From a virus, in IMG/VR virus record IMGVR_UViG_3300037246_001354, positions 1 to 40,674 of that record: 40,674 nucleotides of DNA, one strand, 5' to 3'. Positions 8,646 through 32,386 of the stretch are shown here, piece after piece. Numbering within the stretch: the first letter of the stretch is position 1; every line of letters starts with the position of its first letter. Made by a program: the position numbers and the translations under genes. The notes under the pieces were generated by a model that saw only the letters and a program-made list of their open reading frames with translations, ran no database searches and was not told the origin of the DNA.

Positions 8646-9081
8646 ATACGGCTATTGTTGCCTGTGCGGCTCTTTCAGCCCATCGCGGATCATCTTCATT
8701 TAGAGTGATTTCAGAGTAGAAGTCCTCTATTGTATGGCCACGAATTTTATATGGTGTTGTGGCATCAAAGTCAACAGAAGTATGTTTTAACTCATGCCTC
8801 ATTAACCTCTTTTTATCTTCTGGGTTTATTAAACTCCAACACTTTATATCAAGCCTGATAACATAGTCAAATCCCTCGTCAGTGCCTGATTCATCAATCA
8901 TAAAAAACCTAGTCAATTCATTAGGTTTTTGAATTGAACCAAGTACTATCTTACCACCAGTCATTCTCTTTTTGTTATCAAATATGATTTTAATGTTACA
9001 TCCCGCCAGTTCTGGAAAATGTTCTTCTCTAACCGTGCGCATTATCTCATAGGCTTCTTCACTACCATCATCAAACCTCAT
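8623..9081 (-). CDS. putative HExxH zinc-metallopeptidase-like protein (152 aa)
   Basis: Motif LMRHELKHTSVDFD (HExxH) in a small globular protein; this resembles SprT-like or phage 'putative metallopeptidase' domains. Motif-level call only. Confidence 0.35.
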   Translation of the reverse strand: MRFDDGSEEAYEIMRTVREEHFPELAGCNIKIIFDNKKRMTGGKIVLGSIQKPNELTRFFMIDESGTDEGFDYVIRLDIKCWSLINPEDKKRLMRHELKHTSVDFDATTPYKIRGHTIEDFYSEITLNEDDPRWAERAAQATIAVYEQDRNG

Positions 9082-9142
9082 TTACAAATCCTCCATATTT
9101 TTATTTTTATTTTATTATACTACAAATTTGAGCACTTGTAAA

Positions 9143-9637
9143 TTATATCTTAAATAGATCAGGATCAATGTGTTCAACTTCTTTTTTTACTGGACGGTTT
9201 TTTAAAAGTTTTTCTTGTATTTCACTTCTTGTCATATTATTCATATGTACATTTGCTAGTAACTTTTCCAAAACGCTTTCAAGAGCTTCTATTTTGTTTA
9301 TCGTTTCTTCCATTGATATCCACTTTCCATTTATTTTTACTTCTATATTATCTTTAAATCTTACCATTTCTTCTCCTTCAAAGGTTGCTCTACCCCATAT
9401 CGGAGCTGACCAACCTCCATTATCAGCAACTATGCTATGTTCGTGTTGATGATTTGTTAACACATGACTGTGTCCTGGTGTGTCCATTTCTACTAATTCT
9501 CCATTTGGTCCTACTGAAAACCACTTTTGTACTTCTGGTGATACTGAAGATGTTGTATACCATGTAGTTGCATTACTATTAGTACTGTCTGTGCTATATG
9601 TCGTATTAGTTCCGTTCGCCCATCCCATGTTTACCAT
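9143..9637 (-). CDS. diverged tail-collar-like paralog (164 aa)
   Basis: DTPGHSHVLTNHQHEHS, preceded by a G/S/T/N-rich segment, resembles the PSHSHTLNSHTHT block of the three collar paralogs at 11.7-13.4 kb. Coiled-coil C-terminus. Confidence 0.35.
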   Translation of the reverse strand: MVNMGWANGTNTTYSTDSTNSNATTWYTTSSVSPEVQKWFSVGPNGELVEMDTPGHSHVLTNHQHEHSIVADNGGWSAPIWGRATFEGEEMVRFKDNIEVKINGKWISMEETINKIEALESVLEKLLANVHMNNMTRSEIQEKLLKNRPVKKEVEHIDPDLFKI

Positions 9638-9830
9638 TTTTTATTTCCCCCTCCAATAGTGCTGGTATGTCAAATTTTTGCATCCAAATACAATTCCAAC
9701 ATAAAGTTGTTAAGTTTAACTCTTCCTTACATTCTCCTTTGTATATGCACCAGTGTTTTTTATCTAAATTTATTCTTATTTTTTGCATCGGTTTAAATTT
9801 TGAGCCTAGTCCTGTCGGTCCACTACTCAT
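9606..9830 (-). CDS. small Cys-containing hypothetical protein (74 aa)
   Basis: ORF from the track. Its RBS/start cassette GGGGGAAATAAAAAATG is identical to that of the downstream gene. Cys pattern C-x5-C...C-x2-C. Confidence 0.3.
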   Translation of the reverse strand: MSSGPTGLGSKFKPMQKIRINLDKKHWCIYKGECKEELNLTTLCWNCIWMQKFDIPALLEGEIKNGKHGMGERN

Positions 9831-10860
9831 TTTTTATTTCCCCCGTTAACTTGCTTATTATTTCTAATAAAGTTTTTTCTTTTATGTTTACTGGTTTTTC
9901 AATCCTACTGATATAATCTTTAATAATTTCTTCGTGATCTATCATATCTGGTATGTCCTCTTCTGGTTCATCATCCAACTCATATGATATTTTAGAAAAG
10001 TCAACATGCATTTGTTGTGGCTCTTTACTCATTATATTTTCAATAATGTTCCCATTTTCTACCGTTCCATAATCCTTTTCGAAGGTCAACTTTATGATGT
10101 TCCCCTTTATATCAGAATTATTGATGCTTTCAGTACTCATCTTTATAAAGTGTGGGTATTTATTGAACTCTATGAACTCAAGTTCCCCATTTTCAAATAT
10201 GTAATATCCTCGAGTACTACCGGCATCATGAAATGTTTGTTGGAATGGTGATCCAAGGTAAGTGATTTTACCTTGTGTTGATGGTGTGTGAAAGTGACCA
10301 CTAAACACTCTCTTAAAACTGCTGAAGTCAGATGGATCACGTCCTTTTTTACAGATATATGAGTCATTCATATTAAAACCAGTGATTTCAAAATGCCCCA
10401 TACAGTACTTGTAGTGAGTTGGTTGTACCTCAGCTCCCCACGGTACCAAAATAATATCTTCTGGAAAAAATAATTGTTTATGAACTACTTGTATTTTTTT
10501 ATGTTCTTTGAATATACTCAGACTGGTAGGTAGGATTTTGTTCTTATAGTATGTATCGTGATTGCCTACTACTATAATTAAATTGAATCGCTCAATCATT
10601 TCAGCAATTTTATTAGCTGCATCTTGTGTCTTGGTGTTCGTGGACTTCCTGTTATGGAAAAAATCACCAAGGTGTATTATTGTTTCTATATTTTCTCTAA
10701 AGCATGTGTCATGTATTTCTTTGAATAAGTCTAACACGACTTTATGCCACACATCTGAATCATTGTAAAGACCTAAGTGCGTGTCTCCAACTAACAAATA
10801 TCTCACAGTTTTCTTAGCTCCCCTTTTTTGCTTTAACCTTTTTCTTTTTTGGTGGTCCAT
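9823..10860 (-). CDS. 47: gp47-like Mre11/SbcD-family nuclease (345 aa)
   Basis: Calcineurin-like phosphoesterase motifs in order: LLVGDTHLG (motif I), HLGDFFH (II), VVGNHD (III), GHFH (IV/V). Confidence 0.8.
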   Translation of the reverse strand: MDHQKRKRLKQKRGAKKTVRYLLVGDTHLGLYNDSDVWHKVVLDLFKEIHDTCFRENIETIIHLGDFFHNRKSTNTKTQDAANKIAEMIERFNLIIVVGNHDTYYKNKILPTSLSIFKEHKKIQVVHKQLFFPEDIILVPWGAEVQPTHYKYCMGHFEITGFNMNDSYICKKGRDPSDFSSFKRVFSGHFHTPSTQGKITYLGSPFQQTFHDAGSTRGYYIFENGELEFIEFNKYPHFIKMSTESINNSDIKGNIIKLTFEKDYGTVENGNIIENIMSKEPQQMHVDFSKISYELDDEPEEDIPDMIDHEEIIKDYISRIEKPVNIKEKTLLEIISKLTGEIKNE

Positions 10861-11278
10861 CGAATTGCCTTAACATTCTATAGTCAATTCCTTTAGCGGT
10901 ATAATGAACACCGGAAAGTGACTCACCTAATACATATGCCCTCTTAAAACATATATCTTTTATATCACTATGCTTATTTTGCTTCCTGATATAATTAATG
11001 AAGGCATTGTGTATAATTGTAGTGAAATACGCAAAGGGATTTGGTCTTTCTTGTTTGGTTGGATCGAAATTGTGCATATATTTGAAGCAAGTGAGTACTG
11101 CTTCGGAAACCATATCTTCTTTCCATGTATAGCTCGCAAAACTACCCTTATTAGAATAGTTTTTGGCTATCTGCATAACCATTTTACCTAACTCTTCACT
11201 AATCACTCCCGTTTCTTTATAATCTATAACCTTCGGTAATAAATCCTTATTCCTAACGTAGTACCTTTCTTTACCCAT
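10814..11278 (-). CDS. 55: gp55-like late-transcription sigma factor (154 aa)
   Basis: YVRNKDLLPKVIDYK ~ T4 gp55 YVNNKELLQAIIDWK. SYTWKEDMVSEAVLTCFKYMHNFDPTKQERPNPFAYFTTIIHNAFINYIRKQ ~ T4 [52 protein letters not shown]. Basic C-terminal tail. Confidence 0.8.
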   Translation of the reverse strand: MGKERYYVRNKDLLPKVIDYKETGVISEELGKMVMQIAKNYSNKGSFASYTWKEDMVSEAVLTCFKYMHNFDPTKQERPNPFAYFTTIIHNAFINYIRKQNKHSDIKDICFKRAYVLGESLSGVHYTAKGIDYRMLRQFDGPPKKKKVKAKKGS

Positions 11279-11308
11279 TCCCCCTTTCTTCTCCCGACTT
11301 TTTTACTT

Positions 11309-11337
11309 ATTATATCAGAGTGATTAGTAAAAGTAAA
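11309..11337 (-). promoter_or_regulatory. sigma70-like promoter with extended -10 (TTTACT-N14-TGATATAAT) upstream of the gp55-like gene
   Basis: Minus-strand reading is GTTTACTTTTACTAATCACTCTGATATAATAAG; the same architecture recurs at 37966-37994 (+) and 40073-40101 (-). It lies ~30 nt upstream of the ATG at 11278. Confidence 0.4.
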
Positions 11338-11340
11338 CAG

Positions 11341-11703
11341 TTATTCTAACGCTTTTAAAATATTTATTTCTTCTGGCTCTTCCAAACAAAGTTTTTCTTC
11401 TAACATACTATTTCGTTTTTGCATTTCATCGAACAAATCACTAACTTTAACAAGTACTTTATCATACTTATTACGCTGTCCTTCATAATCTTGTTGGATT
11501 CCTATTGCTCTTTCTGAGTAATCCATCAATAGTAAAGTATTTCTTTTAGGTGCGCAATCGTTTACTACCTTCGGTGAGTTGCTACCTTTAACTGACCAAA
11601 TTGTTTGAATAAACAATGGACATACTACTCTACTATCCTTATCTACTGACCAAAATGGACATGTTTCTCCCATACAAGTTGGTTCTAATTCACGTTTTAT
11701 CAT
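11341..11703 (-). CDS. hypothetical Cys-containing protein (120 aa)
   Basis: ORF from the track; CMGETCPF...CP near the N-terminus. Confidence 0.4.
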   Translation of the reverse strand: MIKRELEPTCMGETCPFWSVDKDSRVVCPLFIQTIWSVKGSNSPKVVNDCAPKRNTLLLMDYSERAIGIQQDYEGQRNKYDKVLVKVSDLFDEMQKRNSMLEEKLCLEEPEEINILKALE

Positions 11704-11717
11704 TTTTTTATCTCCTT

Positions 11718-12275
11718 TTAAACTCTTTCACAAATTAATCCTACACGAGACTCTGGTCTATAAGTACTGACCGATCCATTAGTCGCTGTTGATCCTGGCG
11801 CTGCACCTACGAGTGTTCCAGATATTGAGTGCTGGTGAGTGTAAATAACAAGTTCGGAACCTTCACCGGGTGAACGACCACCATATATACTACCACTGTA
11901 GCCGGTAGTACTTCCAGAAAAGGTGTGAGTATGACTATTTAAAGTGTGTGAGTGTGATGGTGTGGCCCAATTTCCATCTACAGTACCACCTGTTACATAC
12001 GATCCACCTTTAACTGCAATTAGATCATCACTTCCAGAACTTATAGCCCAACCTGTTGGTGCTGAATTAGCGTAAATCCACATTTCTGTGCCTAAAGGTG
12101 TATCAGCATATTGACCAGCATATTTCCAATCCGTGTTGTCTGCTACCCATAAATCTTTTGTCGTTTCATCATAAACCAATCTGTATTCGTCGCTTGCTTG
12201 ATGAACCAGAGCACTAGCGTCTACTACAGTGTCTGATTTAAAATATCCATCCATTGTAATGTTATGAAAATCCAT
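11718..12275 (-). CDS. phage tail-collar (MdpB-like) domain protein, paralog 1 (185 aa)
   Basis: EMWIYANSAPTGWAI...DDLIAVKGGSYVTGGTVDGNWATPSHSHTLNSHTHT matches the tail-collar/MdpB pattern (I..W.....P.GW...DG ... G...GG..G....P.H.H). C-terminal YRPESRVGLIC. Confidence 0.55.
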   Translation of the reverse strand: MDFHNITMDGYFKSDTVVDASALVHQASDEYRLVYDETTKDLWVADNTDWKYAGQYADTPLGTEMWIYANSAPTGWAISSGSDDLIAVKGGSYVTGGTVDGNWATPSHSHTLNSHTHTFSGSTTGYSGSIYGGRSPGEGSELVIYTHQHSISGTLVGAAPGSTATNGSVSTYRPESRVGLICERV

Positions 12276-12288
12276 TATTTCTTCTCCT

Positions 12289-12846
12289 TTAATCTTTAGT
12301 ACAAATTATACCTACAGTAGATTCTGGTCTATATCCTGTTTCTGCACCATCGGATGCTGTACTCCCTGGTGATGGAGCTGTTGTACTTATATTAAATCCA
12401 TGTGTGTGATTTCGTACACCGATTGTTCCTTGGTCACCATCTTCATAGTTTGCGCCAGGTGAATTACTGCCTGTTGTACCGGATGCACTATGGACGTGAC
12501 TATTCATATTATGTGTGTGATTTGGCATTGTAAAACTACCAGCCGCTGTGCCACCTGTGATATAAGTACTACCACCTTTAACTGCGAGCATTTGATCGCT
12601 AGGCGTACCATTAATTGTCCATCCATCTGGTGCGCCGTTGGCATAAATCCACATTTCTGTAGTTGATGGTATATCACTATGAATACCCGGACTTTTCCAT
12701 TCCGTGTTGTCTGATATCCATATTAGCTCTGTGGATTCATCATATAACATTCGTCTTTCATCAGTAGAATCCCAAACCAAAGCACTCACATCTACTACAC
12801 TTTGAGCTTTATACTCTCCTTTCATTGTAATTCCATGAAACTTCAT
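12289..12846 (-). CDS. phage tail-collar (MdpB-like) domain protein, paralog 2 (185 aa)
   Basis: Same architecture, EMWIYANGAPDGWTI...MLAVKGGSTYITGGTAAGSFTMPNHTHNMNSHVHS, with C-terminal YRPESTVGIIC. Confidence 0.55.
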   Translation of the reverse strand: MKFHGITMKGEYKAQSVVDVSALVWDSTDERRMLYDESTELIWISDNTEWKSPGIHSDIPSTTEMWIYANGAPDGWTINGTPSDQMLAVKGGSTYITGGTAAGSFTMPNHTHNMNSHVHSASGTTGSNSPGANYEDGDQGTIGVRNHTHGFNISTTAPSPGSTASDGAETGYRPESTVGIICTKD

Positions 12847-12858
12847 TTTATTTTCTCC

Positions 12859-13434
12859 TTATCTTGTACATAGTATTCCTACACGGGCTCTTGGTCTATA
12901 TCCTGATGCAGAACCACCTATACCAGTTGAACCTGCCGCCGTGGTTGATGCTATACTAGCATTATGATTATGTACACCTGCTGTAACACCCGAATTATCA
13001 CCTTCTGAATTGCCCGCTGAGTTATTTACTGTACCGGACGTTACGTGAGTATGGCTATTCAAACCATGTGAGTGAGATGGTGTATTAAAATTTCCTTGAA
13101 TACTACCACCCGTAGTATAAGTACCACCGCCTTTGATCGCAACAAGTACATCACCCGGTGATGCATATAATGACCATCCATCCGGTGGAGAATCAGCATA
13201 AACCCACATTATTGTATTTTGTGGGATATTACTATATCCACCCATGGATTTCCATTCTGAGCTGTCAGCTATCCATATGTCTTTTGTTGTTTCATCATAT
13301 ACCATTCGACTTTCATCACTGGCTTGATGAAATAAAGCGCTAGCATCTACTACTGTGTGTGCCTTAAAATATCCTTGCATGTCAATGCCAGAAAACTTCA
13401 TTTTATCCTCCTTTTGAGTGCTCAACAAGAGCAT
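12859..13434 (-). CDS. phage tail-collar (MdpB-like) domain protein, paralog 3 (191 aa)
   Basis: IMWVYADSPPDGWSL...VLVAIKGGGTYTTGGSIQGNFNTPSHSHGLNSHTHV, with C-terminal YRPRARVGILC. Its start overlaps the 3' end of the rSAM gene by 32 nt. Confidence 0.55.
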   Translation of the reverse strand: MLLLSTQKEDKMKFSGIDMQGYFKAHTVVDASALFHQASDESRMVYDETTKDIWIADSSEWKSMGGYSNIPQNTIMWVYADSPPDGWSLYASPGDVLVAIKGGGTYTTGGSIQGNFNTPSHSHGLNSHTHVTSGTVNNSAGNSEGDNSGVTAGVHNHNASIASTTAAGSTGIGGSASGYRPRARVGILCTR

Positions 13435-14404
13435 TATAATAACAACCTACTCTACATACATCTAATGCATTACAATTTTTACACTCTTCTCTTAAATTTT
13501 TAATACATTCTGTTTTAAAAGTATGTGCTGGTGTAATATATTCATTTTGTAATTCTATCATTGTTTTTAAACTGCCATCCTCTTTTAAAACACTGCCTAA
13601 TTTTATTCTTGTTTGATTACAGTATTGAAAATCCCAATTCGCATTTATTAATCCGGTTTTAGGACAGGTACAACATGTTGTACCAAAATGAAAATTAGTT
13701 AAGTCAATCATATTTAACTCATTTATCATTTCTTGTGTATAGAAACAAATCGGAAAAGAATGGTCTGTTCCCCATTCTATACCTCTACTTTGTAATTCTG
13801 GTATAATTTGCTTAAGGGTATCTATATATATTTTTCTATACTCTTTGGTTACTTCTTCATCAAACACATCTACTTGTGTATCACATGATATTGTATATTT
13901 TATATCAGGATAATAAATCATGCAATCTAACATCTTCTGAAGTATTTCCTTGTATCCCCACATAGTTATTACAAAGTGTAAATTTAATTTTCTATTAAAT
14001 CCTCTCCACTTTTCATACGTTACAGGGTCAAATGCATAACCATTTATAGTATATGTGATTTTCTCTTTATAATGTTCTCTTACTATATCTGGATGGGTAG
14101 CAATTTTATTTAACGTTCTACCATTAGTGAATAAATCAACTAACAAATAGTGCTTAGTGGATTCCAAAAGAATTTCAATTATTCTTGGATGAAGTGTTGG
14201 CTCACCACCCATAATTAAACATCTCTTATCACTCAGATGAGCACTATTTGTTCTTATAAATTCAATATAAAGGTCTGCATCCATCACAGCCTGATCTCTT
14301 GCTTCCGCATTAAAACAATGAGGGCAATCTAAATTACAATTTTCTGTTACAACAAATCTATGGCATAACTCTCTCACAATTATTTCTCCCTTTAAGTCCA
14401 TCAA
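13403..14404 (-). CDS. radical SAM enzyme with C-terminal SPASM domain (333 aa)
   Basis: N-terminal CNLDCPHC is an exact CX3CX2C radical-SAM cluster motif, followed by a GGEPTLHP SAM-binding motif. C-terminal CKNCNALDVCRVGC is an exact SPASM CX2CX5CX3C motif, with additional upstream Cys residues (CCTCP...C) for an auxiliary cluster. Confidence 0.7.
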   Translation of the reverse strand: MMDLKGEIIVRELCHRFVVTENCNLDCPHCFNAEARDQAVMDADLYIEFIRTNSAHLSDKRCLIMGGEPTLHPRIIEILLESTKHYLLVDLFTNGRTLNKIATHPDIVREHYKEKITYTINGYAFDPVTYEKWRGFNRKLNLHFVITMWGYKEILQKMLDCMIYYPDIKYTISCDTQVDVFDEEVTKEYRKIYIDTLKQIIPELQSRGIEWGTDHSFPICFYTQEMINELNMIDLTNFHFGTTCCTCPKTGLINANWDFQYCNQTRIKLGSVLKEDGSLKTMIELQNEYITPAHTFKTECIKNLREECKNCNALDVCRVGCYYNALVEHSKGG

Positions 14405-14422
14405 TCTGTGTAATGCTAAGGA

Positions 14423-14788
14423 CTAGACTATACCGGTATCTTTGGTGGACCCGTCAGATTGAAGTGATATTTTATTTTCTACTTCTCTTTTGGTCTTGGC
14501 AAGCTCGCTACTCATTTCTAAGAATTTCATTTTGAGCTTGTCCATTGACCGTTTCTTAATTCTAAATTTCTTTTCCAAGATAGAGCTTTTTACACTATCA
14601 CCAAGTATGAAATCAAATTTTGACTTCCTCTTCAGTAACTTATTTAGCTCATTTATCTGATTTACTACGTCACTTTCTAATTTAAATTCCTCTTGAATCT
14701 TACGTACGAGTTCTTTATTACCGGTATCCTTATCAACGATGCCGATATTGAGATTTCTAAAATCATCTATGTATTTTTTAAATTTCAT
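14423..14788 (-). CDS. hypothetical basic coiled-coil protein (121 aa)
   Basis: ORF from the track, Lys/Glu-rich. Its start abuts the stop of the upstream giant gene. Confidence 0.4.
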   Translation of the reverse strand: MKFKKYIDDFRNLNIGIVDKDTGNKELVRKIQEEFKLESDVVNQINELNKLLKRKSKFDFILGDSVKSSILEKKFRIKKRSMDKLKMKFLEMSSELAKTKREVENKISLQSDGSTKDTGIV

Positions 14789-17700
14789 TATGGACTACTC
14801 GTACTAATGCTTAATGACTCGCTTTCAGAGCTAGATGATTGACTGCTTGAGCTAATACTTGAACTGCTGCTAGAACTAGAAACACTTGACGAGCTAGAAC
14901 TGCTAAGGCTTGATGAAGAGCTAGAACTGCTAGAACTTAGAGAACTCGAACTCGAAGAAACACTGCTCGAAGAGCTAGAACTACTACCCGGACAGATAAA
15001 GCCACCACTAACCAATAAGAAGTTATCAAATGCCGCTGAAACAATTGGAGTTCCTGTATAATTTTGTACATATAATGATACATCTACTTCTTCAAAAGTC
15101 TGTACAGTATAAGGACCACCAATCGCAACCCAAGTTGATCCATTCCAATAGTATGACTGCCAATCATCACCAACTCTGGTGATTCTGAATCCACCACTAG
15201 TTATAGGCGCTGAAACATTTGTACTGTCAATCACAACACCACCAGATACCATTTCTTCTGTGATTGTGGTTGTATGCGCTCTCTTATAAACTCTTGTTCC
15301 CCTACTTCCAGCTGTAAATTGTAGTACTTCAAATCCTACATTCCAACCACTACCACTAACTATTGATAATTCTCTCCAATCAGTTTGAACATCAAAATTT
15401 TCATTTGTAGGTATTAACCATCTTGTTGTTGCTTTAGATAGATTTGTTGTATCGTCTACATGTATTATAAGTTCTTCGCCGCTTACTATCATATTACCTA
15501 CTGTGGTCCATCTTTGTACATCTGGTACTGTTCCATCAGGTTGATCGAAGTCATCATTCGGTGTGATGAAACAAGAGAAACTACTGCTTGATGTCGAACT
15601 ACTACTAAATGATTCAGAACTAGAACTAGAACTTAATGAACTAGAACTGGAATCAGAACTGGATGAAATACTGCTCGATGAAATACTGCTCGATGAAATA
15701 CTACTCAATGAGCTAGAGCTAAGACTCGAGCTGCTCGACGAGCTTGATCTGGAGCTGGAACTAGAACTTACAGAACTGGAGCTTGAAGAAACGCTACTTG
15801 AACTAGAAGAAATAGAGCTTATACTTGATGAACTCGATGATCTACTTGAACTGGAAAAACTTTCACTGCTTGAAGATATTGAACTTGAACTCGCGCTTGA
15901 ACTGGAGAGAATAAATCTATCTTCAAGTTCTTTAATTAGTTCGTAATAATCTGCTGGAGTCAATCCACAATTTTCAAATTGTGATCCTTTATATCTTCTT
16001 CTTATTCTTGCTTTTTTCCATGGTGTAGATGAGCTAGATAAGCTTGAAGAACTAGAACTTAATGAGCTAGAACTGGAACTAGAACTTAATGAGCTAGAAC
16101 TGGAACTGGAACTTAATGAGCTAGAACTGGAACTGGAACTGGAACTTAATGAGCTAGAACTGGAACTGGAACTTAATGAATTAGAAGAACTCGATGAACA
16201 ATCATCTATAAGATAACTTCCTAAAGTTCCTGTAGCAAATTTACCAACATAAACATATTTTCCATCGCCCCAAACTGAAAGCAATCCGGCATCTACTTCT
16301 GTGTTTGTATCAAGAAGTGTTAAATTACCAGAACCATCTACTACATGACTCTTGAAGCCTTGAGTAAGATCGGCACAATAAATAAAAGTTCCATCTCCCC
16401 AAACTTTTTGAGGTTGCCCACCTGCTAATACAGTAACATATGATAAATTACCAGATTCATCAACAGAGTAAGTTTGCATTCCTTCATTTTGATTAGCAAC
16501 ATAAATAAAGTTTCCATCACCCCAAACACCCTGGTAGTTACTACCACCACCTTGCTTTTGGGTAGAAATATGATTTAAATTACCTGCACCATCAACAGAA
16601 TAACTTAAAATACCAATACCAGTCGAAGCAACATAAATAAAATTTCCATCACCCCAAACATCTTTATAAATACTGCCTTGGTCATCTACATCTTTAAATG
16701 TTAAGAAACCAGCACCATCAACAGAGTAACTTCTAAGACCTTGATTATCACAAGCACAATAAATAAAAGTTCCATCACCCCAAACACCCTGGTAGTTATC
16801 ACCTTGATCTATTAAATGTATTGGAGTTAGGATACCATTTTCATCAACAGAATAACTTCTAAGTCCAAGGTGGCTATTAGCAACATAAATAAAGTTTCCA
16901 TCCCCCCAAACACCATTATAAGAATTGCCTTGATCGTCTGTATCTACATGCGTTAAAACACCTGAACCATGATCGACTGAAAAACTTCTAAGACCCTCAA
17001 GTTCACCCGCAACATAGATATAATTTCCATCACCCCAAATATCAGCATATGAATCACTACCTACGGTAATATCATCCATAAGTGCTATATCACCTGAACC
17101 AGTACAGGTTGACGACGAACTACTGGAACGAGATGAACTTGATACTGATGATGAACTAATAGATGAACTAGATAAACTGGATGAACTAATAGAGCTAGAA
17201 CTAGAACTCGAACTTAATGAACTAGAACTTAGCGAACTCGAACTTAATGAGCTAGAACTGGAAATAGAACTAGAACTGCTTGAAGATGAATTGAAATTAA
17301 TTTCAAAATTCTGAGTATAGCCTGTAGCACTATCGGCGGGAGAAGCACCGGAATCTCTGGAAACTAATACATAAAGATATTGTTTTGCTCCAGTTTCACA
17401 GGTAATTGATAGTGCATCTATTAATGATCCCGAGGTTCTAGCGGAATCGGAGTGAATATCTAGTGTTGCTATAGTTCCATTCCTTTTGAAAGAGCAATAT
17501 AATAAATCAGATGATGTTCCACCATCATTATAAGCTTCTGTATTATCTGTGTTCTGGTCGCTTATTCTAAAATCTAAACTGTTACTATTTCCATAGGCAT
17601 AAACTACTATTCCATCATTTCCGCTGAATTGATCGTTAAATGTTCCAATTATGTTAGAAACAGAACACAAAATTGTTTGAGAAATAGTACCAGTAACAGC

Positions 17701-17877
17701 AGTAATTTGCATTTCAAAATCAATGTCAAAATCACTAAAATGACCTACACCAAAATCATAATATGCATAAGAGACATCATCCCTGCGCATTGCAGTGAAT
17801 GTAGCCGCAGAAGAGTCTAAAGTAAAAACACCAGCGCTGCCAACTGCTGTATATGTAGTTAAATTTTCAATTGCCAT
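14788..17877 (-). CDS. giant fiber/adhesin-like protein: poly-Ser linkers + LVIVD-like beta-propeller + jelly-roll-like module (1029 aa)
   Basis: Eight ~45-aa repeats of form y.GVWGDGnFIYVA...GLRSYSVD.sGnLT. Four long SSSSLSSSS linkers. Central module CFITPNDDFDQPDGTVPDVQRW...FDNFLL is shared with two paralogs. Confidence 0.55.
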   Translation of the reverse strand: MAIENLTTYTAVGSAGVFTLDSSAATFTAMRRDDVSYAYYDFGVGHFSDFDIDFEMQITAVTGTISQTILCSVSNIIGTFNDQFSGNDGIVVYAYGNSNSLDFRISDQNTDNTEAYNDGGTSSDLLYCSFKRNGTIATLDIHSDSARTSGSLIDALSITCETGAKQYLYVLVSRDSGASPADSATGYTQNFEINFNSSSSSSSSISSSSSLSSSSLSSSSLSSSSSSSSISSSSLSSSSISSSSVSSSSRSSSSSSTCTGSGDIALMDDITVGSDSYADIWGDGNYIYVAGELEGLRSFSVDHGSGVLTHVDTDDQGNSYNGVWGDGNFIYVANSHLGLRSYSVDENGILTPIHLIDQGDNYQGVWGDGTFIYCACDNQGLRSYSVDGAGFLTFKDVDDQGSIYKDVWGDGNFIYVASTGIGILSYSVDGAGNLNHISTQKQGGGSNYQGVWGDGNFIYVANQNEGMQTYSVDESGNLSYVTVLAGGQPQKVWGDGTFIYCADLTQGFKSHVVDGSGNLTLLDTNTEVDAGLLSVWGDGKYVYVGKFATGTLGSYLIDDCSSSSSNSLSSSSSSSSLSSSSSSSSSSLSSSSSSSSLSSSSSSSSLSSSSSSLSSSSTPWKKARIRRRYKGSQFENCGLTPADYYELIKELEDRFILSSSSASSSSISSSSESFSSSSRSSSSSSISSISSSSSSVSSSSSSVSSSSSSRSSSSSSSSLSSSSLSSISSSSISSSSISSSSDSSSSSLSSSSSSESFSSSSTSSSSFSCFITPNDDFDQPDGTVPDVQRWTTVGNMIVSGEELIIHVDDTTNLSKATTRWLIPTNENFDVQTDWRELSIVSGSGWNVGFEVLQFTAGSRGTRVYKRAHTTTITEEMVSGGVVIDSTNVSAPITSGGFRITRVGDDWQSYYWNGSTWVAIGGPYTVQTFEEVDVSLYVQNYTGTPIVSAAFDNFLLVSGGFICPGSSSSSSSSVSSSSSSLSSSSSSSSSSLSSSSSSSVSSSSSSSSISSSSQSSSSESESLSISTSSP
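16053..16186. repeat. tandem 27-33-nt serine-codon repeat (about 5 copies) inside the 1029-aa gene
   Basis: The unit acttaatgagctagaactggaact(ggaact) recurs head-to-tail and encodes SSSSLSSSS. The period is always a multiple of 3. Confidence 0.7.
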
Positions 17878-17882
17878 ATAAT

Positions 17883-17892
17883 CTATTTATCC
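17883..17892 (-). promoter_or_regulatory. late-promoter-like GATAAATAG junction motif
   Basis: Minus strand reads GGATAAATAGATTAT-ATG, a 7/8 match to the T4 late consensus TATAAATA. The same motif recurs at four other gene junctions. Confidence 0.3.
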
Positions 17893-17893
17893 T

Positions 17894-20800
17894 TTATGGT
17901 GCTGTACTGCTAGAAGAAGTACTACTTGAACTAAAACTTCCAGCACATATAATTCCATCTGCTGAATTTACAACAAAATCATTCAAACTAATTGTTGATG
18001 TTGTTGCGTCGCCTGCTTTTAGATGTATTTGAATTTTTACATCCCCTGTGTAATCAGAAAGTAGAGCACCAGTTGTACTAGCCTGAGCACATATACTACC
18101 CCATCTTGATTGTGGTCCATACCAGGTCCATCCTCTTATTTCGTCACCAATTCTTGTAAATCTAAGACCTGGGTCACGTGGGTTCGCATCGTAACCTTGA
18201 TTACAAAATCCAGCTGTAGTACCTCTACCACCAACTCGATTTGCACCACCAGTTTGTTTATAGTTACGTATCATGGCTACCTCTAATGCTCCTAATCCTC
18301 CACTAGCTGGAACTACCTGCATTTGTGGAAACCAGTTTTCTGTTGTAGGATTAACGCCATGGAAATAACCAAGATGACCAATATGAATATCAAAGTCACC
18401 AACAAATCCATTTCTTGACTCTATAACGAAAAGTCTATCACCAACAGTAGATGCACTAGGATTGAAGTATAATGTATTATTCTTTATATATGCTCCATCT
18501 GGATCATCTGCCTGTAGTATACTCCACTTTTGAAGGTCTACTGAGTCACCATCACTGCCATCGAATGAATCATCAGGTACGATTTCACAAGAAACGCTAC
18601 TTGAACTTGTAGATGAACTAGAACTAGAACTTAATGAACTAGAACTAGAACTTAATGAACTAGAACTCACAGAACTACTTGAACTACTTGATGAACTTGA
18701 ATATGTTTCTCCAAATATACATTGTGCATTACTATTAAAATCACCTATGTATAGATACCTTACAGTTGTTCCTTCTCCTGATTTATCACCATTTGTATGT
18801 ACTATCTCTAATCCAACTTCACTAGGAAATCCTGTTATAGTTGGTGCTGAAAAGTAATCCCCGCCTCCTTTATTAAAATGGAATGTATCACCACTTCTTT
18901 GTAAGCGAAGGTTATAATCTCCATTCATAGCAGGATCATCAATCTGGATTCTTCCAGTTGGCACACCTGCGCTAGGCGTGTAATCATAATATGGTTGTGT
19001 TCCATTGAGGCCAGAATGGTATAATGCGGCTCCAAACTCAAAATACCAATCAGCGCCACTCGTAGGTAAGTCGAAAATTCTTAGATACTGTCTATGTCCA
19101 TCTACATCATGCCCAGAACCATCTGTATTTGAATAAGCAACCGTATAGTGTAAACTAAAGTTTCCATCAAAGCTACCTGTGAAAACAAATCTGGTTTTTC
19201 TATCCGTGATTGATAAATCTTGGTCATTTACAACTGATTCCATTACATAATCACCACTAATAAAACCATATTTTAACCACTCATCAACATTATTAGATAG
19301 TGGATGAGTAGTGTTCCATAATTGGCCACCTGGTTGTGAGTCGTTAGTATATGGAGTAGTAGGAGGCGGTGCGGCAGAAGCACAATCATTTCCACAACCA
19401 TCAAAACCACCACCATAGTTTTCAGATACACCCTTTTCTAAAAATGGTTCTTGTAATTGGAATCCAGCGGATGGTGTTAATACACAACTAAATGAACTAG
19501 AAATTGATATTGAACTTGATGAAAAACTTGAACTTGATGATGAGCTTGAAAGTCCACAGAATGAAACTAATACCCAAATTTGAAAAAGGTATCCATTTCT
19601 TAAAGCGCCCGAAGTATTACCGAATGCAAAGTCAATATCCAGATTTCTAAGATCATCCCATATCCAATTTTTATATCCCGGCCCCGCAGCATCATTAGTT
19701 ATATCAAAGGTATATATAGTTCCTCCTGCTCCTATAGTAGCAGGAAGTTGATCTGTTCCATAATCAGTTCCAGGAGTAACACCATCAAATCTTGGTGTAA
19801 AATTTCTTAATTTTGGATTCACTTTCGTATTTTCAGAAGCTATTTTAACTCTTATTTTAACTCCAAATATATCACCATATTCAGCCCCTGAAGGTATAGT
19901 ATTACCAGTAAATCTTAACAAATCACTTTGTGCACTACCCCATACATCAAATCTTGCATATGTATTTGGATCACCATCTGTGGAGTTAGGTAAATCAACC
20001 CAACTACCAGATTGTCCACCCAAATTTGAAACTGTATTATAGTCATAAGCGCCTTCTGGTATGCCAAGCGGACAAGATGAACTACTGCTTAAGGAAGACG
20101 ATGAAGAAGACGATGAAGAAGAAGTCGATGAACTGGAACTACTACTAGAAAATGTTTCTCCAATTATACAACCTGCATTACTCAAAGTATCCGCAAAATA
20201 ATCCATTCTAACTTCTGATCTTTGGTCAGTCCTAATACCATTTGTGTGTATTATTTCAATTCCAACCTCACTTGGAAAATCTGCTATTGTTACGTCTAAA
20301 GCTTTGGAATCACTGTTTCTATAAAATTGAAATGTTTGTCCTGATCTAAGTATTTTAGCTCTATGTCCAGCACTCTGTTGCCAGAAGGTGTCACCGGTAT
20401 ATTTAGTTCTTCCATTACTCACACCAGCACTTGGTGTATAGTCAGCGTAAGGTGATGATCCACCAATTCCAGTCTGCCATATGAGAACACCACATTCTAC
20501 GTACCAATCAGCGCCACCTGTTGGTAAATCGAAAAATCTAAAGAAGTACCTATGACCATCTACATCCACACCGCTATCTGTTGAGGCACTCCAAGGTGTT
20601 GCAAAGTTAATGCTGAAATCTCCATCAATTTTCCCTGTGAATTTATATTCGGTTTGTCTTTCTGATCCGGACACTTCCAAGTTATTTACTATTGATCTCA
20701 TTGATAAATATGGTTTATTGCTATTATCAGGATCAGCTCCCCAACTGTAGTAACTTAAAGAATTATCGCTATTATTAGGTTTTGGTGTAATTACTTCGAA

Positions 20801-22762
20801 TAATTGTCCACCAGGTTGAGCACCTAATGTATATGGAGTAGTTGGTGGCGGCGCTGCTGATGCAGGAGTAACTGGATATGGTAAATTTCCAATGTAGTCT
20901 CTTGATTCACCAGCTTCTAAGAATGGCTCAAGTATTTGGAATCCTCCGGCTGATACTAATACACAACTAAATGAACTAGAACTAAATGAGCTAGAACTAG
21001 AACTTAGAGAACTCGAACTTATAGAACTACTGCTCGAGCTAGAACTTGAACTTAGAGAACTACTGCTCGAGCTAGAACTTTCAGAACTAGAACTTACAGA
21101 ACTAGAACTTGAACTAGAACTTTCAGAACTAGAACTTGAAGAACTGGAAAGAGAACTTGAAGAACTCGAAGAAGAAGAACTCCATAAGCTTCCTTGACCA
21201 GCTATTACTAATAATGAGTCATTTGGTGGTGAACTTGATGCTGCCCAAACTCTCATTGTTTTTGAATCTATAAAATTTATCTCTATTGGGTAGTATATTT
21301 CTTTTGTTTCAGTATCCCATAATGTTGCTGCGTACGTATGTTGAACACCCATATAATGTACTATATCTGCATAGTATATACTACCACTTGGTACCCACAC
21401 TGCTTCATATTGTATATCTGATTCTGTTCCATCCTCCACTATCCTTATTTGTTTAAATATTAATTTATTATCTGTTGAATAAGGAAAAGCACCATCAGCT
21501 ACATATGACAATAAATCACAGATGTTTTTATTACTTATGACTTTATTATATCCAGCTGGTGGATCAGTTGTCGTTTTCCAAGAATAATCAAATTCACCCC
21601 AAGTTACTTTCATCAATCCATGAGTACCCACGGTACAAATTGTTTCACTTACTGAACTACTGCTTGAACTTACAGAGCTGCTACTACTGCTTGAACTTAC
21701 AGAGCTGCTTGAACTTGAAGAACTACTGCTCAAACTACTAGATGAACTAGATGAACTAGACGATACAGAACTAGAACTACTACTTGAACTGACACTTGAG
21801 CTACTTGATGATACTGAACTTGAGCTACTTGAAGAATATGAACTTGAAGAGGGTTCTACTTCATAACTAAACAAAATTCCATTAGGGATACCTACATAAA
21901 CGAAGTTTCCATCACCCCAAATTCCTCTGGAACCTGGAGCACTATCAAGTAGTATTAAACCACCAGTAGGATTTACAGAGTAGCTTGTAAAATTGCCTGT
22001 CGAATAAACAAGCTGTCCATCACCCCAAACTTTCCACGCATCTCCTGCTTCTAAGTTTCTACTTACATATGTTAAATTACCAGAAGGATCAACTGTGTAA
22101 GTTAAAACCCCCCTGGCATTACTAGAAACATACAAAAAGTTTCCATCCCCCCAAACATCAGTATATGAATTGGCAGGAACCTGAACTTCATAGTGTTTAT
22201 CTACAAATGTTAAATTACCAGAACCATCAACTGTGTAAGTTAAAAGTCCACCATTGGCTTGACCAGTAGTTATATAAATAAAATTTCCATCACCCCAAAC
22301 ATTTCTATATACAGTTGATCCTCCAATCCAATGAACATCTTTATATGTTAAGAAACCACCACCGTCAACAGAGTAGCTTTTAATTCCTTGCCATTGACTA
22401 GCAACATAAATAAAATTTCCATCACCCCAAACACTTACATAACCATTACCTCCAACTATTCCCCCTTGTAGGTGTTCATCTATAAATGTTAAATTACCAG
22501 AAGGATCAACGGAATAAGTTCTAAGACCACCAAATTCACAAGCAGCATAGATGAAAGTTCCATCTCCCCAAACGCCTGCATAAGCATGACCCTGGTCATC
22601 TGAATGTATAAATGTTAAATCACCAGAAGGATTTACAGAGTAAGTTCTAAGACCAGCAGCATCACAAGCAGCATAGATAAAGTTTTCATCTGTCCAAATA
22701 GCCATTGGTGTACCAGTACCCTTGTCATTTGTATCTTTAAGTGTTATATCACCTGCTGCCAT
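17894..22762 (-). CDS. giant fiber/adhesin-like protein with internal ~400-aa tandem domain duplication (1622 aa)
   Basis: N-terminal propeller repeats (VWGDGNFIYV...), then five poly-Ser linkers and two paralogous ~400-aa domains (SSFSCVL...AAPPPTTPYT...DVDGHRYFFRFFDLPTGGADWY...FPSEVGIEIIHTNG). C-terminal module CEIVPDDSFDGSDGDSVDLQKW. Confidence 0.55.
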   Translation of the reverse strand: MAAGDITLKDTNDKGTGTPMAIWTDENFIYAACDAAGLRTYSVNPSGDLTFIHSDDQGHAYAGVWGDGTFIYAACEFGGLRTYSVDPSGNLTFIDEHLQGGIVGGNGYVSVWGDGNFIYVASQWQGIKSYSVDGGGFLTYKDVHWIGGSTVYRNVWGDGNFIYITTGQANGGLLTYTVDGSGNLTFVDKHYEVQVPANSYTDVWGDGNFLYVSSNARGVLTYTVDPSGNLTYVSRNLEAGDAWKVWGDGQLVYSTGNFTSYSVNPTGGLILLDSAPGSRGIWGDGNFVYVGIPNGILFSYEVEPSSSSYSSSSSSSVSSSSSSVSSSSSSSSVSSSSSSSSSSLSSSSSSSSSSVSSSSSSSSVSSSSSSVSETICTVGTHGLMKVTWGEFDYSWKTTTDPPAGYNKVISNKNICDLLSYVADGAFPYSTDNKLIFKQIRIVEDGTESDIQYEAVWVPSGSIYYADIVHYMGVQHTYAATLWDTETKEIYYPIEINFIDSKTMRVWAASSSPPNDSLLVIAGQGSLWSSSSSSSSSSLSSSSSSSSESSSSSSSSVSSSSESSSSSSSSLSSSSSSSSSSISSSSLSSSSSSFSSSSFSCVLVSAGGFQILEPFLEAGESRDYIGNLPYPVTPASAAPPPTTPYTLGAQPGGQLFEVITPKPNNSDNSLSYYSWGADPDNSNKPYLSMRSIVNNLEVSGSERQTEYKFTGKIDGDFSINFATPWSASTDSGVDVDGHRYFFRFFDLPTGGADWYVECGVLIWQTGIGGSSPYADYTPSAGVSNGRTKYTGDTFWQQSAGHRAKILRSGQTFQFYRNSDSKALDVTIADFPSEVGIEIIHTNGIRTDQRSEVRMDYFADTLSNAGCIIGETFSSSSSSSSTSSSSSSSSSSLSSSSSCPLGIPEGAYDYNTVSNLGGQSGSWVDLPNSTDGDPNTYARFDVWGSAQSDLLRFTGNTIPSGAEYGDIFGVKIRVKIASENTKVNPKLRNFTPRFDGVTPGTDYGTDQLPATIGAGGTIYTFDITNDAAGPGYKNWIWDDLRNLDIDFAFGNTSGALRNGYLFQIWVLVSFCGLSSSSSSSSFSSSSISISSSFSCVLTPSAGFQLQEPFLEKGVSENYGGGFDGCGNDCASAAPPPTTPYTNDSQPGGQLWNTTHPLSNNVDEWLKYGFISGDYVMESVVNDQDLSITDRKTRFVFTGSFDGNFSLHYTVAYSNTDGSGHDVDGHRQYLRIFDLPTSGADWYFEFGAALYHSGLNGTQPYYDYTPSAGVPTGRIQIDDPAMNGDYNLRLQRSGDTFHFNKGGGDYFSAPTITGFPSEVGLEIVHTNGDKSGEGTTVRYLYIGDFNSNAQCIFGETYSSSSSSSSSSVSSSSLSSSSSSLSSSSSSSTSSSSVSCEIVPDDSFDGSDGDSVDLQKWSILQADDPDGAYIKNNTLYFNPSASTVGDRLFVIESRNGFVGDFDIHIGHLGYFHGVNPTTENWFPQMQVVPASGGLGALEVAMIRNYKQTGGANRVGGRGTTAGFCNQGYDANPRDPGLRFTRIGDEIRGWTWYGPQSRWGSICAQASTTGALLSDYTGDVKIQIHLKAGDATTSTISLNDFVVNSADGIICAGSFSSSSTSSSSTAP

Positions 22763-22803
22763 TTAAAATGTCCTTATTGTTAAATTATTCCATGTCATTT
22801 AAT

Positions 22804-22813
22804 CTATTTATCC
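22804..22813 (-). promoter_or_regulatory. late-promoter-like GATAAATAG junction motif
   Basis: GGGATAAATAGATTAAATG..., followed by an 11-codon mini-ORF ending IRTF* whose TAA overlaps the ATG of the downstream giant gene (TTTTAAATGG). Confidence 0.3.
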
Positions 22814-22814
22814 C

Positions 22815-25166: not shown

Positions 25167-25276
25167 TTAAAATGTCCTCATTGCTATTATTCTATTGCTG
25201 TTACTACAAAAGTACCCGCTGAAATCACTATCTGCTTCGGTATATTCACCTAATATATTTTCAATTGTCATATAAT

Positions 25277-25286
25277 CTATTTATCC
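25277..25286 (-). promoter_or_regulatory. late-promoter-like GATAAATAG junction motif with 34-codon mini-ORF
   Basis: GGATAAATAGATTAT-ATGACAATTGAAAAT... The mini-ORF MTIENILGEYTEADSDFSGYFCSNSNRIIAMRTF* shares its first codons with the 1029-aa gene (MAIENL...) and ends in the TTTTAAATGG start context of the 783-aa gene. Confidence 0.3.
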
Positions 25287-26102
25287 TATTGCTGTTATCA
25301 TAAACAATGCTGCAGATGGAGGAGTTGTTACAAATATCCTTAAATCATTTAGTCCTATAGTTTTTATTGTTTCTGGGATTATTAAATTATTATTATTTCT
25401 ATCTATTACTTGTACTATTGGATAATCATTATTGAGATTATGACTAATATCAGCATAATATAATGATCCAGAAGCTGCAAGAGCATGATCTTCTGGTATG
25501 CGACTGAAGTCTATGTCCGCAGCAGAAGCATCAAGAGATGTAGTCGACGCGCTTACTGCAAGAGTATAGATTTTATTTAGTAGTCTATTGCTGACTACTT
25601 TATTATATACATCACTCGAATCACATACAATAACAGGATGAATATTATGTGGTGATGCTGATGGAACCTCTGAATTAACATGTTGTTCCCATCTATACGC
25701 CAGAGCATTATTAATTAGTTTGTTTCTTCTAACTGCTTCATCATTTGGTGATTGACCACCTAAAGTTTCATCAATTTGGTATAGTGGTGGATATACATCA
25801 ATGTTCTGTATTGTGCCTCTTGATATACCAGGTTTATACCATGTTAACTTAAACCTTTGTGTGGATACGTAACCACCTTCTAATTCCCACTCATCACCTA
25901 CCCAAAACTCAAAGTATCCATCTGAATTTGTTACCAAGCTAACTGCATCCGTAGTCGTCATATGACCAACGGTTGGGTTGGTATAAATGCTTGCATACTG
26001 TGTGCTATCAGTATCTTCATTTAGAAAGAAGTCTACATCCACATTGATTATAGGTCTACCTTCTTCATCCACTATATACTGCCAATAATGTATTCTCGCC
26101 AT
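25281..26102 (-). CDS. fiber-associated protein (273 aa)
   Basis: NKLINNALAYRWEQHVNS ~ DKNKAISNSLAYQIECHISKQ in the 783-aa protein. SLYYADISHNL ~ SIYYADIVHYMG in the 1622-aa protein. Confidence 0.45.
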   Translation of the reverse strand: MARIHYWQYIVDEEGRPIINVDVDFFLNEDTDSTQYASIYTNPTVGHMTTTDAVSLVTNSDGYFEFWVGDEWELEGGYVSTQRFKLTWYKPGISRGTIQNIDVYPPLYQIDETLGGQSPNDEAVRRNKLINNALAYRWEQHVNSEVPSASPHNIHPVIVCDSSDVYNKVVSNRLLNKIYTLAVSASTTSLDASAADIDFSRIPEDHALAASGSLYYADISHNLNNDYPIVQVIDRNNNNLIIPETIKTIGLNDLRIFVTTPPSAALFMITAIG

Positions 26103-26120
26103 TATATATTTCCTCTTTAT

Positions 26121-26129
26121 CTATTTATC
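26121..26129 (-). promoter_or_regulatory. late-promoter-like GATAAATAG motif ~22 nt upstream of the ATG at 26102
   Basis: Minus strand reads GAAATAGATAAATAGATAAAGAGGAAATATATA-ATG. The spacing leaves room for a transcription start plus an AGAGGAAA RBS. Confidence 0.35.
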
Positions 26130-26178
26130 TATTTCTCTGTATACTGCTTAAAATTTAATCACATGAACTACTTGAACT

Positions 26179-30240: not shown

Positions 30241-30250
30241 TTTGTTCTCC

Positions 30251-31978: not shown

Positions 31979-31999
31979 CTGTTTTCCTCTTATGTTTAT

Positions 32000-32007
32000 T
32001 ATTTATC
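32000..32007 (-). promoter_or_regulatory. late-promoter-like GATAAATA motif upstream of the gp6-like gene
   Basis: Minus strand reads AAGATAAATAATAAACATAAGAGGAAAACAG-ATG, ~24 nt upstream of the ATG at 31978. Confidence 0.3.
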
Positions 32008-32386
32008 TTGACAATACGAAGTCAATTTGCTCTATTTCTTCCGATCCAACTACGGTGAAACTCATCCTACACCTATACATACTCTGCTCTGGGACGGCCT
32101 CGATGTCAAATCCGGTCACTTCAATTCTATCCTCCCAAATTTCTATTGCTTCTAATATTCCTTCCGCTATTTTTAACGATGTTATATCATCTATTGGTTC
32201 AAATAGAAGCCACCAAGTTGCTGAGGCAAAAGTTGGTAGCATTCTGCGTGTGCCCGGTCTAGTTTTTATAATGTTATTTAGACTGTTTATTATTGCCTGG
32301 ACGTCAGTTTTAATATCAATATCACCATCATTTTGTCTCTCAAGATCGTCGTCTGTATCGCTCCAAACATATGTCTTTATTGCCAT
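32003..32386 (-). CDS. 25: gp25-like baseplate wedge protein (GPW/gp25 family) (127 aa)
   Basis: IIKTRPGTRRMLPTFASATWWLLFEP...ILEAIEIWEDRIEV matches the family pattern iL.T..GeR.m.P.fG..l..l.Fe ... wEpRi. Size is typical for the family. Confidence 0.55.
   Translation of the reverse strand: MAIKTYVWSDTDDDLERQNDGDIDIKTDVQAIINSLNNIIKTRPGTRRMLPTFASATWWLLFEPIDDITSLKIAEGILEAIEIWEDRIEVTGFDIEAVPEQSMYRCRMSFTVVGSEEIEQIDFVLSR

Follow-up and report, generated by a model that had tools for sequence, protein, structure and literature searches.

The uncultured virus record IMGVR_UViG_3300037246_001354 carries a gene for a radical S-adenosylmethionine (radical-SAM) enzyme immediately before three tandem genes for short fibre-like proteins with HxH motifs (paralogs A, B and C) and a gene for a 120-aa protein, p120. 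The window analysed here is the whole 40,674-nt stretch of this record, and positions are given in its coordinates. We find that HxH fibre and p120 genes form a conserved unit, in which the enzyme gene is a facultative, exchangeable cassette. The HxH fibre and its partner with four conserved Cys (4-Cys) make up a widespread, unannotated two-gene module that occurs in aquatic phages of both T4-like and podovirus-like type. For the fibre paralogs, the enzyme is no obligatory maturase. On balance, we lean slightly toward an explanation in which the fibre module is accompanied by a facultative accessory cassette, with the substrate of the enzyme lying elsewhere or being optional.

The constant neighbour of the fibre genes was p120 or, for a second subfamily of fibre proteins (HxH2), its homolog c112. 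A p120 gene followed the last HxH gene in the window clade, in L046, L048 and L050, in the podovirus-like L052/53 and in about 20 IMG/VR contigs, with or without a radical-SAM gene, and in 13 contigs HxH2 was always followed by a homologous 4-Cys protein, either c112 or p120. The T4-like L048 and L050 carry giant proteins, a fibre gene of the type found in the window (HxH1) and p120, without the enzyme, and in podovirus-like genomes the HxH-p120 pair stands directly after the portal-capsid-adaptor block. Within the 8-10 kb flanks that were examined, no enzyme ortholog was present in the roughly 20 IMG/VR contigs with one to three tandem HxH copies and p120, nor in the 13 contigs with HxH2 and c112 or p120; in all, about 35 related contigs had fibre and partner with no enzyme gene in these flanks. 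The contigs recovered in the enzyme scan and in the fibre scans overlapped only for the window clade. An earlier note on this DNA had read the locus as a post-translational maturation system for virion fibre tips. In L048 and L050, in about 20 podovirus-like contigs and in 13 HxH2 contigs, relatives keep the paralogs with no enzyme nearby, an observation that the note itself had named as counting against its reading.

The enzyme's slot was filled differently in two close, syntenic T4-like relatives. L013 (1226-3452) and L246 (277-2064) share the order HxH2 - X - c112 - small open reading frame - gp20 portal, in which slot X is occupied in L013 by the radical-SAM gene and in L246-248 by a 144-aa gene unrelated to it. 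Together, the enzyme-less fibre loci and this slot swap indicate that the enzyme behaves as an exchangeable cassette. The 121-aa gene directly upstream of the enzyme in the window may belong to the same cassette. Among syntenic relatives its homologs occurred only where a radical-SAM gene was present (window clade and L046/47) and were absent from L048 and L050, and its product had no family match in Pfam, NCBIfam or PHROG.

Cassettes of this kind have precedents. In pelagimyophages, radical-SAM cassettes differ between close relatives within a fibre-containing host-recognition cluster (PMC7029224). Like the window, these pelagimyophage and cyanomyophage cassettes belong to T4-like aquatic phages and combine a hypervariable fibre region, presence or absence of radical-SAM genes and, in the same region, glycosyltransferases; unlike the window enzyme, they come without family assignment, fibre partner or function, and the likeness is one of region and cassette behaviour (PMC7029224). 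T4-like phages with many radical-SAM genes were already known (PMC2853527, PMC7029224), and therefore the mere presence of such a gene is not unprecedented; the statement in the earlier note that T4-like phages normally carry only NrdG- or QueE-type radical-SAM enzymes was too strong (PMC2853527, PMC7029224).

The proposed maturation system had centred on a lone Cys near the C-terminus of each paralog. Each of the three tandem paralogs has exactly three HxH motifs and, as the earlier note described, exactly one Cys, which lies three or four residues from the C-terminus within ...YRP(E/R)x(R/T)VG(I/L)(I/L)C... In fibres of enzyme-less phages the same position is mostly Cys (...VGIICQPS, ...VGIICTKD), and other enzyme-less fibres have Ala, Ile or Leu there (...VGILATKD, ...VGILITKS, ...VGIILEKN), which is the pattern that would be expected of a buried beta-strand residue. 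Enzyme-linked HxH2 proteins end ...WRPKGRNFTRQQR and have no C-terminal Cys, and the HxH2 proteins of L085, L089 and L093 contain no Cys at all. Given that Cys-free proteins are found among the partners of the enzyme, the idea of a lone Cys target fails. Thioether formation on Cys and conversion of Cys are both ruled out by these Cys-less partners as a chemistry common to the linked loci. From its substitution pattern, the C-terminal Cys appears to be a replaceable structural residue, not the target of the enzyme, being kept or replaced where no enzyme is present. A conserved lone Cys beside a SPASM gene can be a false signal of a system resembling those for ribosomally synthesized and post-translationally modified peptides (RiPPs).

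The distribution of the enzyme is much broader than that of its fibre-linked forms. Its homologs comprised 104 clusters, all of them metagenomic, and tblastn searches of 50,697 GenBank phage records with the window enzyme and a second ortholog returned no match. Among 185,579 species genomes the best cellular match was 30% identical; with no cellular gene closer than this, the family is specific to phages. Orthologs (34-89% identical) occurred in at least twelve contexts. Those near HxH-family genes followed four gene orders: enzyme - three HxH1 genes - p120 in the window clade (L005, L006, L078-L081); HxH2 - enzyme - c112, continued by HxH1 - p120 - gp55 in L046 and by the gp20 portal gene in L013; a poly-Ser giant, one or two HxH2 genes, a 200-aa protein and then the enzyme in L085, L089 and L093; and a large HxH2-type protein 3.4 kb from the enzyme in L088. 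No fibre gene lay within 6-10 kb of the enzyme in 113-277 kb jumbo phages (L001, L009-12), in a CCA-adding enzyme / RNA ligase / gp44 (clamp-loader) region (L003, L017), in a clade located in a sugar-modification cluster (L043-45, L086) or in L014, L015, L016 and L087. An all-against-all search revealed no neighbour family common to every enzyme context, and searches with P0189 and P0190 found no HxH or Collar-type protein on the enzyme-bearing jumbo-phage contigs. In a rough neighbor-joining tree, the fibre-linked enzymes fell into three clades interleaved with unlinked enzymes.

Several of these contexts had features of their own. In L043 (3197-9044), L044 (5132-12951) and L045 (2941-10760), orthologs 42-45% identical to the window enzyme lie beside gp32 in a sugar-tailoring cluster that encodes a 921-958-aa multi-domain glycosyltransferase, Methyltransf_24 and CmcI-type methyltransferases and a DegT/DnrJ/EryC1 aminotransferase, with a papain-like peptidase and a DUF1353 protein further along. 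Between HxH2 and the radical-SAM gene, L085 (5236-5850), L089 (3319-4005) and L093 (2420-3139) encode a conserved protein of roughly 200 aa. A CxxC...CxxC ribbon lies in its N-terminal part, and a 'FKEGRRRFHLLRYLGATRIPV' segment in its C-terminal part resembles ParB or sulfiredoxin by eye, with no support from Pfam or NCBIfam. Remote Bacteroidota and gut homologs, 25-28% identical, form tandem radical-SAM pairs (L104, 6628-8921; L165, 6331-9186; L109, 4415-8399) whose neighbours are a PqqD-like 90-aa protein or small Cys-containing peptides with a 'LLDNIEALANGE' leader-like segment; this RiPP-like setting is our reading of the gene context, and no hidden Markov model confirmed it. In the NCBIfam scan, neither the remote bacterial homologs nor p120, c112 and the 200-aa protein of L085 scored above a curated cutoff, and the bacterial enzymes gave weak matches to the radical-SAM core only.

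By its predicted fold, the window enzyme represents a new branch of the SPASM/twitch group of radical-SAM enzymes, outside the described subfamilies. Its membership of the superfamily is clear from Pfam Radical_SAM (PF04055; E=1.2e-12, 48.8 bits, cutoff 29.5), and both Cys motifs reported in the earlier note are present, CX3CX2C as C23-x3-C27-x2-C30 and CX2CX5CX3C as C308-x2-C311-x5-C317-x3-C321. C23, C27 and C30 are conserved in all 38 aligned homologs and GGEPT is invariant; C220, C262 (NQT), C308, C311, C317 and C321 are invariant or nearly so in the same alignment. Like other SPASM/twitch enzymes (anSME, SuiB, SkfB, PqqE and CteB, and the sugar-acting BlsE, DesII and BtrN), it combines CX3CX2C, the SAM-binding motif GGEPT, a partial TIM barrel and a C-terminal CX2CX5CX3C domain; unlike them, it has no N-terminal RiPP recognition element (RRE) and departs from the SPASM pattern itself. 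The SPASM identity put forward earlier was therefore borne out in its CX2CX5CX3C motif and SPASM/twitch-type fold, but not in full: the SPASM model PF13186 gave no match at E<=0.1, the strict CX9-15GX4C portion of the 7-Cys motif fails (Gx10C spacing in place of Gx4C), and the last Cys is missing, with none following C321. Several homologs carry the JGI label 'SPASM'. The length of 333 aa similarly holds for the open reading frame from TTG 14404, but the N-termini of homologs and an AAGGGAG ribosome-binding site make ATG 14401 or GTG 14377 the likelier start.

An AlphaFold2 model of the enzyme (predicted local distance difference test, pLDDT, 91.5) gave SuiB (TM-score 0.61), SkfB, TigE, BlsE and PqqE as top Foldseek matches, with EpeE, DesII, MoaA and viperin also among the matches. 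At the level of sequence profiles, the only solved structure that aligned near full length was anSME (4k37, positions 14-311), and identity to solved structures was at most 17%. In the sequence of 333 residues the radical-SAM core starts near residue 12, and the model shows no additional domain in front of it; neither the enzyme nor the scanned neighbour proteins matched RRE or PqqD in Pfam or NCBIfam. All NCBIfam scores were 20-46 bits against cutoffs of 130-850, so that no equivalog or subfamily was reached. The comparison with TIGRFAM and Pfam SPASM subfamilies recommended in the earlier note thus yielded no assignment, and with every score so far below its cutoff the enzyme does not cluster with a housekeeping family either. 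Three specific families were considered and rejected: anSME (TIGR03942, 30 bits against a cutoff of 349), HxsB/HxsC (HxsC 31 bits against 267.9, with no (HxS)n repeat in any module protein) and GRRM (no GRRM model among the 25 best NCBIfam matches). The anSME substrate motif C/S-x-P/A-x-R is absent from A, B, C, the 121-aa protein and a 1029-aa protein that precedes the module, and among module proteins occurs only in p120 (CAPKR). The enzyme also lacks the hallmarks of a RiPP maturase, an RRE and a short leader-bearing precursor, its neighbours being structural proteins of 180-185 aa. Without RRE/PqqD and without GRRM, anSME or Hxs membership, the RiPP-like or GRRM-like substrate-enzyme pair envisaged earlier found no support.

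The paralogs are probably short trimeric metal-binding fibre proteins that belong to a large fibre family of uncultured phages. They are 48-54% identical to one another (B to A 48%, C to A 54%). An overlap of the enzyme's 3' end with the first paralog, as described in the earlier note, arises only for the longest open reading frame (ATG 13434); paralog A instead starts at ATG 13401 (MKFSG, as in all homologs), 1 nt past the enzyme's TAA (13405-13403), and its AAGGAGG ribosome-binding site lies within the enzyme's last codons. The MdpB/tail-collar domain attributed to the paralogs was not recovered: no Pfam, NCBIfam or PHROG model matched any of them, including Collar (PF07484) at E<=0.1, a model that detected the positive control P0190 at E=1e-15. 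Their link to this domain is remote and runs through P0190, the one real Collar protein reached by the paralog profile (E=3.5e-6). In hhalign the match (99% probability) extends over the HxH region and an N-terminal module of some 50 aa, leaving out the collar core. This N-terminal module, MKFSGIDMQG in paralog A, is common to Collar- and collagen-trimerization-type phage proteins and matches the Pfam collagen-trimerization domain PF20010 in the repeat protein P0188. A podovirus-type member of the family, P0182, showed a weak Gp10_C match.

Across the fibre family each chain keeps three HxH motifs, with H115 and H117 invariant in 42 sequences. HxH is an Fe- or Zn-binding motif in trimeric fibres such as T4 gp37 (PMC11705849), and the HxH clusters that had been counted as part of a RiPP-like signature are the ordinary metal-binding motif of such fibres (PMC11705849). 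Like the HxH trimeric fibres (the T4 gp37 tip, the C-terminal domains of gp12 and gp10, and Collar/MdpB proteins), the paralogs have a P-x-H-x-H motif and further HxH motifs in a Gly/Ser/Thr-rich segment followed by a hydrophobic C-terminal strand, and their genes occupy a similar position, at the end of the baseplate/fibre block or, in podovirus-like genomes, after the adaptor. Unlike gp37, gp12 and Collar fibres, the family measures only 160-210 aa, has MW.Y..AP.GW...LLAVKGG in place of the collar core and is always paired with a small 4-Cys protein. The AlphaFold2 monomer of paralog C was too poor for fold assignment (pLDDT 65) and matched only collagen XVIII trimerization domains, non-significantly; a poor monomer model fits an intertwined trimer and does not show one. 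The paralog profile found no match among PDB sequences, and neither paralog C nor a podovirus-type fibre found one in tblastn searches of the same GenBank phage records.

The genes of p120 and c112 resemble those of the chaperones that follow phage fibres. As in T4 gp37/gp38 and lambda stf/tfa, a small conserved gene stands directly behind a fibre gene, and the two travel together among phages of very different kinds; unlike gp38 and tfa, p120 and c112 have four conserved Cys, and from their gene order they may act as chaperones. Neither protein had detectable similarity to known chaperone families in Pfam, NCBIfam or PHROG.

In the explanation that we favour, the locus would encode a two-component fibre module made of a short fibre protein, triplicated here, and p120. 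The fibre protein would start with an N-terminal trimerization-type module, continue as a Gly/Ser/Thr-rich shaft that carries the three HxH motifs, and close with the beta-strand ...RPxxRVG(I/L)(I/L)C... In the trimer, the six His contributed by each HxH motif would surround a metal ion on the threefold axis, as they do in T4 gp37 and gp12. p120 would probably bind metal and serve as a chaperone in assembly or as an adaptor. The radical-SAM gene, perhaps with the 121-aa gene, would form an exchangeable cassette inside the module and would be co-transcribed with it. The enzyme itself is predicted to cleave SAM at its CX3CX2C cluster and to abstract a hydrogen atom from its substrate, and may hold one or two auxiliary Fe-S clusters through C220, C244-247, C262 and C308/311/317/321.

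Several points tell against the preference for an accessory cassette. The enzyme adjoins HxH-family genes in four gene orders on three tree branches, which is more than would be expected of a random cassette, and HxH genes were absent from about 70 loci that carry unrelated radical-SAM genes. Flanks of 8-10 kb also leave room for an enzyme or fibre gene elsewhere in the genome, and the tree is rough, so that the linked loci might share a single ancestral arrangement. Such descent from one arrangement, or an insertion hot-spot in a hypervariable fibre region, could explain much of the adjacency. The recurrent adjacency, with its four gene orders and three enzyme clades, also speaks for a rival that we regard as unlikely, if far from negligible: the enzyme would modify the adjacent HxH fibre proteins by crosslinking, epimerisation or C-H functionalisation, as an optional hardening or specificity step, and would recognise them by the N-terminal M.FHGI.M.GK module rather than by a leader peptide. 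Every enzyme-linked HxH protein has this module and the enzyme-less podovirus-type fibres lack it, but module-bearing relatives with no enzyme nearby also exist (L048, L050, L246-248 and L240). In most enzyme lineages the nearest 6-10 kb are free of HxH genes. The 1-nt gap and the ribosome-binding site inside the enzyme gene in the window speak for this rival. SuiB, SkfB, TigE, PqqE and EpeE among the structural neighbours, and the remote bacterial homologs, point to peptide maturation, yet the enzyme has no RRE domain and no maturase-family match, and the Cys-less HxH2 partners exclude Cys as its target. Of the case for a maturation system, the peptide-maturase-like fold and remote homologs and the adjacency in four orders stand; an obligatory role and a Cys target do not. 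A facultative role of the enzyme in fibre biology keeps a minority chance in our estimate, and it is doubtful to a similar degree that the enzyme is a facultative phage-specific SPASM maturase that makes a Cys-independent modification on module-bearing HxH fibres or their 4-Cys partners and thereby tunes fibre stability or host range.

It is rather improbable that the enzyme acts instead on a sugar or nucleotide-sugar, like DesII, BlsE, BtrN and AbmM, to supply a glycan for virion fibres (for example the poly-Ser giants) or for host-surface remodelling. One entire clade of the enzyme, at 42-45% identity to the window protein, does lie amid the 921-958-aa glycosyltransferase, two or three methyltransferases (one of CmcI type) and the DegT/DnrJ/EryC1 aminotransferase, a layout that resembles the DesI-DesII logic of desosamine synthesis, but the sugar context is confined to that one clade, and the Pfam and PHROG scans found no glycosyltransferase or sugar-pathway gene among the window proteins covered. 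BlsE, DesII and AbmM are among the structural matches, with DesII and BlsE ranked below peptide maturases that have two auxiliary clusters. Giants with 20-30% Ser stand upstream in the window, L085, L089 and L093, and pelagimyophage host-recognition clusters mix glycosyltransferases with radical-SAM cassettes (PMC7029224). It is very improbable that the enzyme is anSME-like and oxidises a Cys of p120 to formylglycine. Residues 50-58 of p120, C-A-P-K-R-N-T-L-L, match the sulfatase formylglycine signature CxPxRxxLL, and anSME (4k37) is the one solved structure with a near full-length alignment to the enzyme profile. The fit of C-A-P-K-R-x-x-L-L to C-x-P-x-R-x-x-L-L is invariant in the family, and the CAP(K/R/I)R motif is kept even in phages without a radical-SAM gene; many enzyme-less phages have a motif-bearing p120, while the c112 proteins that adjoin the enzyme in L013 and L046 keep only the Cys (C-A-[LI]-N-V). 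Because c112 keeps only this residue, the Cys of the p120 motif probably completes a metal site of four Cys as its fourth ligand; four conserved Cys, of which it is one, are typical of such sites. The anSME model scored far below its cutoff.

The locus lies at the distal end of the late baseplate/fibre gene block of a deep-branching uncultured T4-like phage. T4-like gene names were assigned by Pfam and PHROG matches (Table 1). The same scans placed homologs of gp6 and gp5 (baseplate wedge and hub) upstream of the module, and together with gp55, gp47 and gp46 they stand in a T4-like arrangement; this gene set therefore marks the window as the baseplate/fibre region of a phage that is T4-like (Straboviridae-related). 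gp46 is 24% identical to its nearest isolate. All genes across 9-37 kb lie on the minus strand. In order of transcription, the locus and its neighbours comprise the 1029-aa protein, 121-aa protein, radical-SAM enzyme, A, B, C, p120, gp55, gp47 and gp46. The T4 late-promoter consensus TATAAATA had zero sites on the coding (minus) strand of the fibre-gene block (9000..37000), and sigma-70 and terminator scans gave results at or below chance.

Table 1. Genes of the radical-SAM and fibre locus and neighbouring T4-like genes, in window coordinates.
Feature	Position	Strand	Remarks
1029-aa putative fibre or baseplate-distal protein	14788..17877	-	30% Ser, 41 runs of >=4 Ser; precedes module
121-aa Lys-rich Cys-free protein	14423..14788	-	directly upstream of radical-SAM gene
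Radical-SAM enzyme with SPASM-like C-terminal Cys cluster	13403..14404	-	333 aa from TTG 14404
HxH fibre paralog A, 180 aa	12859..13401	-	HxH at residues 110, 117, 144; Cys178
HxH fibre paralog B, 185 aa	12289..12846	-	HxH at residues 110, 117, 147; Cys182
HxH fibre paralog C, 185 aa	11718..12275	-	HxH at residues 108, 115, 147; Cys182
p120, 120 aa	11341..11703	-	conserved C10, C15, C28, C50; candidate fibre chaperone or adaptor
gp55 homolog (T4 late sigma factor)	10814..11278	-	Pfam/PHROG
gp47 homolog (SbcD)	9823..10860	-	Pfam/PHROG
gp46 homolog (SbcC)	1828..4008	-	Pfam/PHROG

Other proteins of the window also drew our attention. The 1029-aa protein is one of three giant putative structural proteins, the others being encoded on the same strand at 17894..22762 (19% Ser, 29 runs of at least four Ser) and 22815..25166 (22% Ser, 18 such runs); their poly-Ser tracts alternate with repeated 'VWGDGNFIYVA...GLRSYSVD' units, and none had a family match in the Pfam and PHROG scans. 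Giants resembling them also precede the HxH2 genes in L085, L089 and L093. In a 1353-aa structural protein (26179..30240, minus strand), one segment is a 7-bladed beta-propeller of lactonase type and an internal stretch resembles HNH endonucleases. A 164-aa protein (9143..9637, minus strand) has a PGHSHVLTNHQHEHS cluster (HSH, HQH, HEH) and keeps its position in L005 and L006; its match to the fibre profile was not significant (E=2.2), and it may be a further small HxH protein. A putative phage metallopeptidase (PF18894, E=9e-18) is encoded at 8623..9081 on the minus strand. The 843-aa protein at 5013..7544 (minus strand) matched the Major Vault Protein shoulder domain (PF11978, E=1.3e-26), with a vault repeat and a weak SPFH/Band-7 match, making it an MVP-like protein in a T4-like phage.

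If the enzyme does act on fibres, radical chemistry would join the known means by which phages diversify or harden their receptor-binding proteins, with the first case of a virion protein modified post-translationally by a radical-SAM enzyme. The enzyme family, with at least 100 sequence clusters, all from uncultured sources, would in that case provide a testable entry point. The module of HxH fibre and 4-Cys protein was absent from the 50,697 GenBank phage records searched; it is useful for annotating the host-recognition regions of phage genomes, and it bears on the iron-ligand role that has been proposed for HxH fibres.

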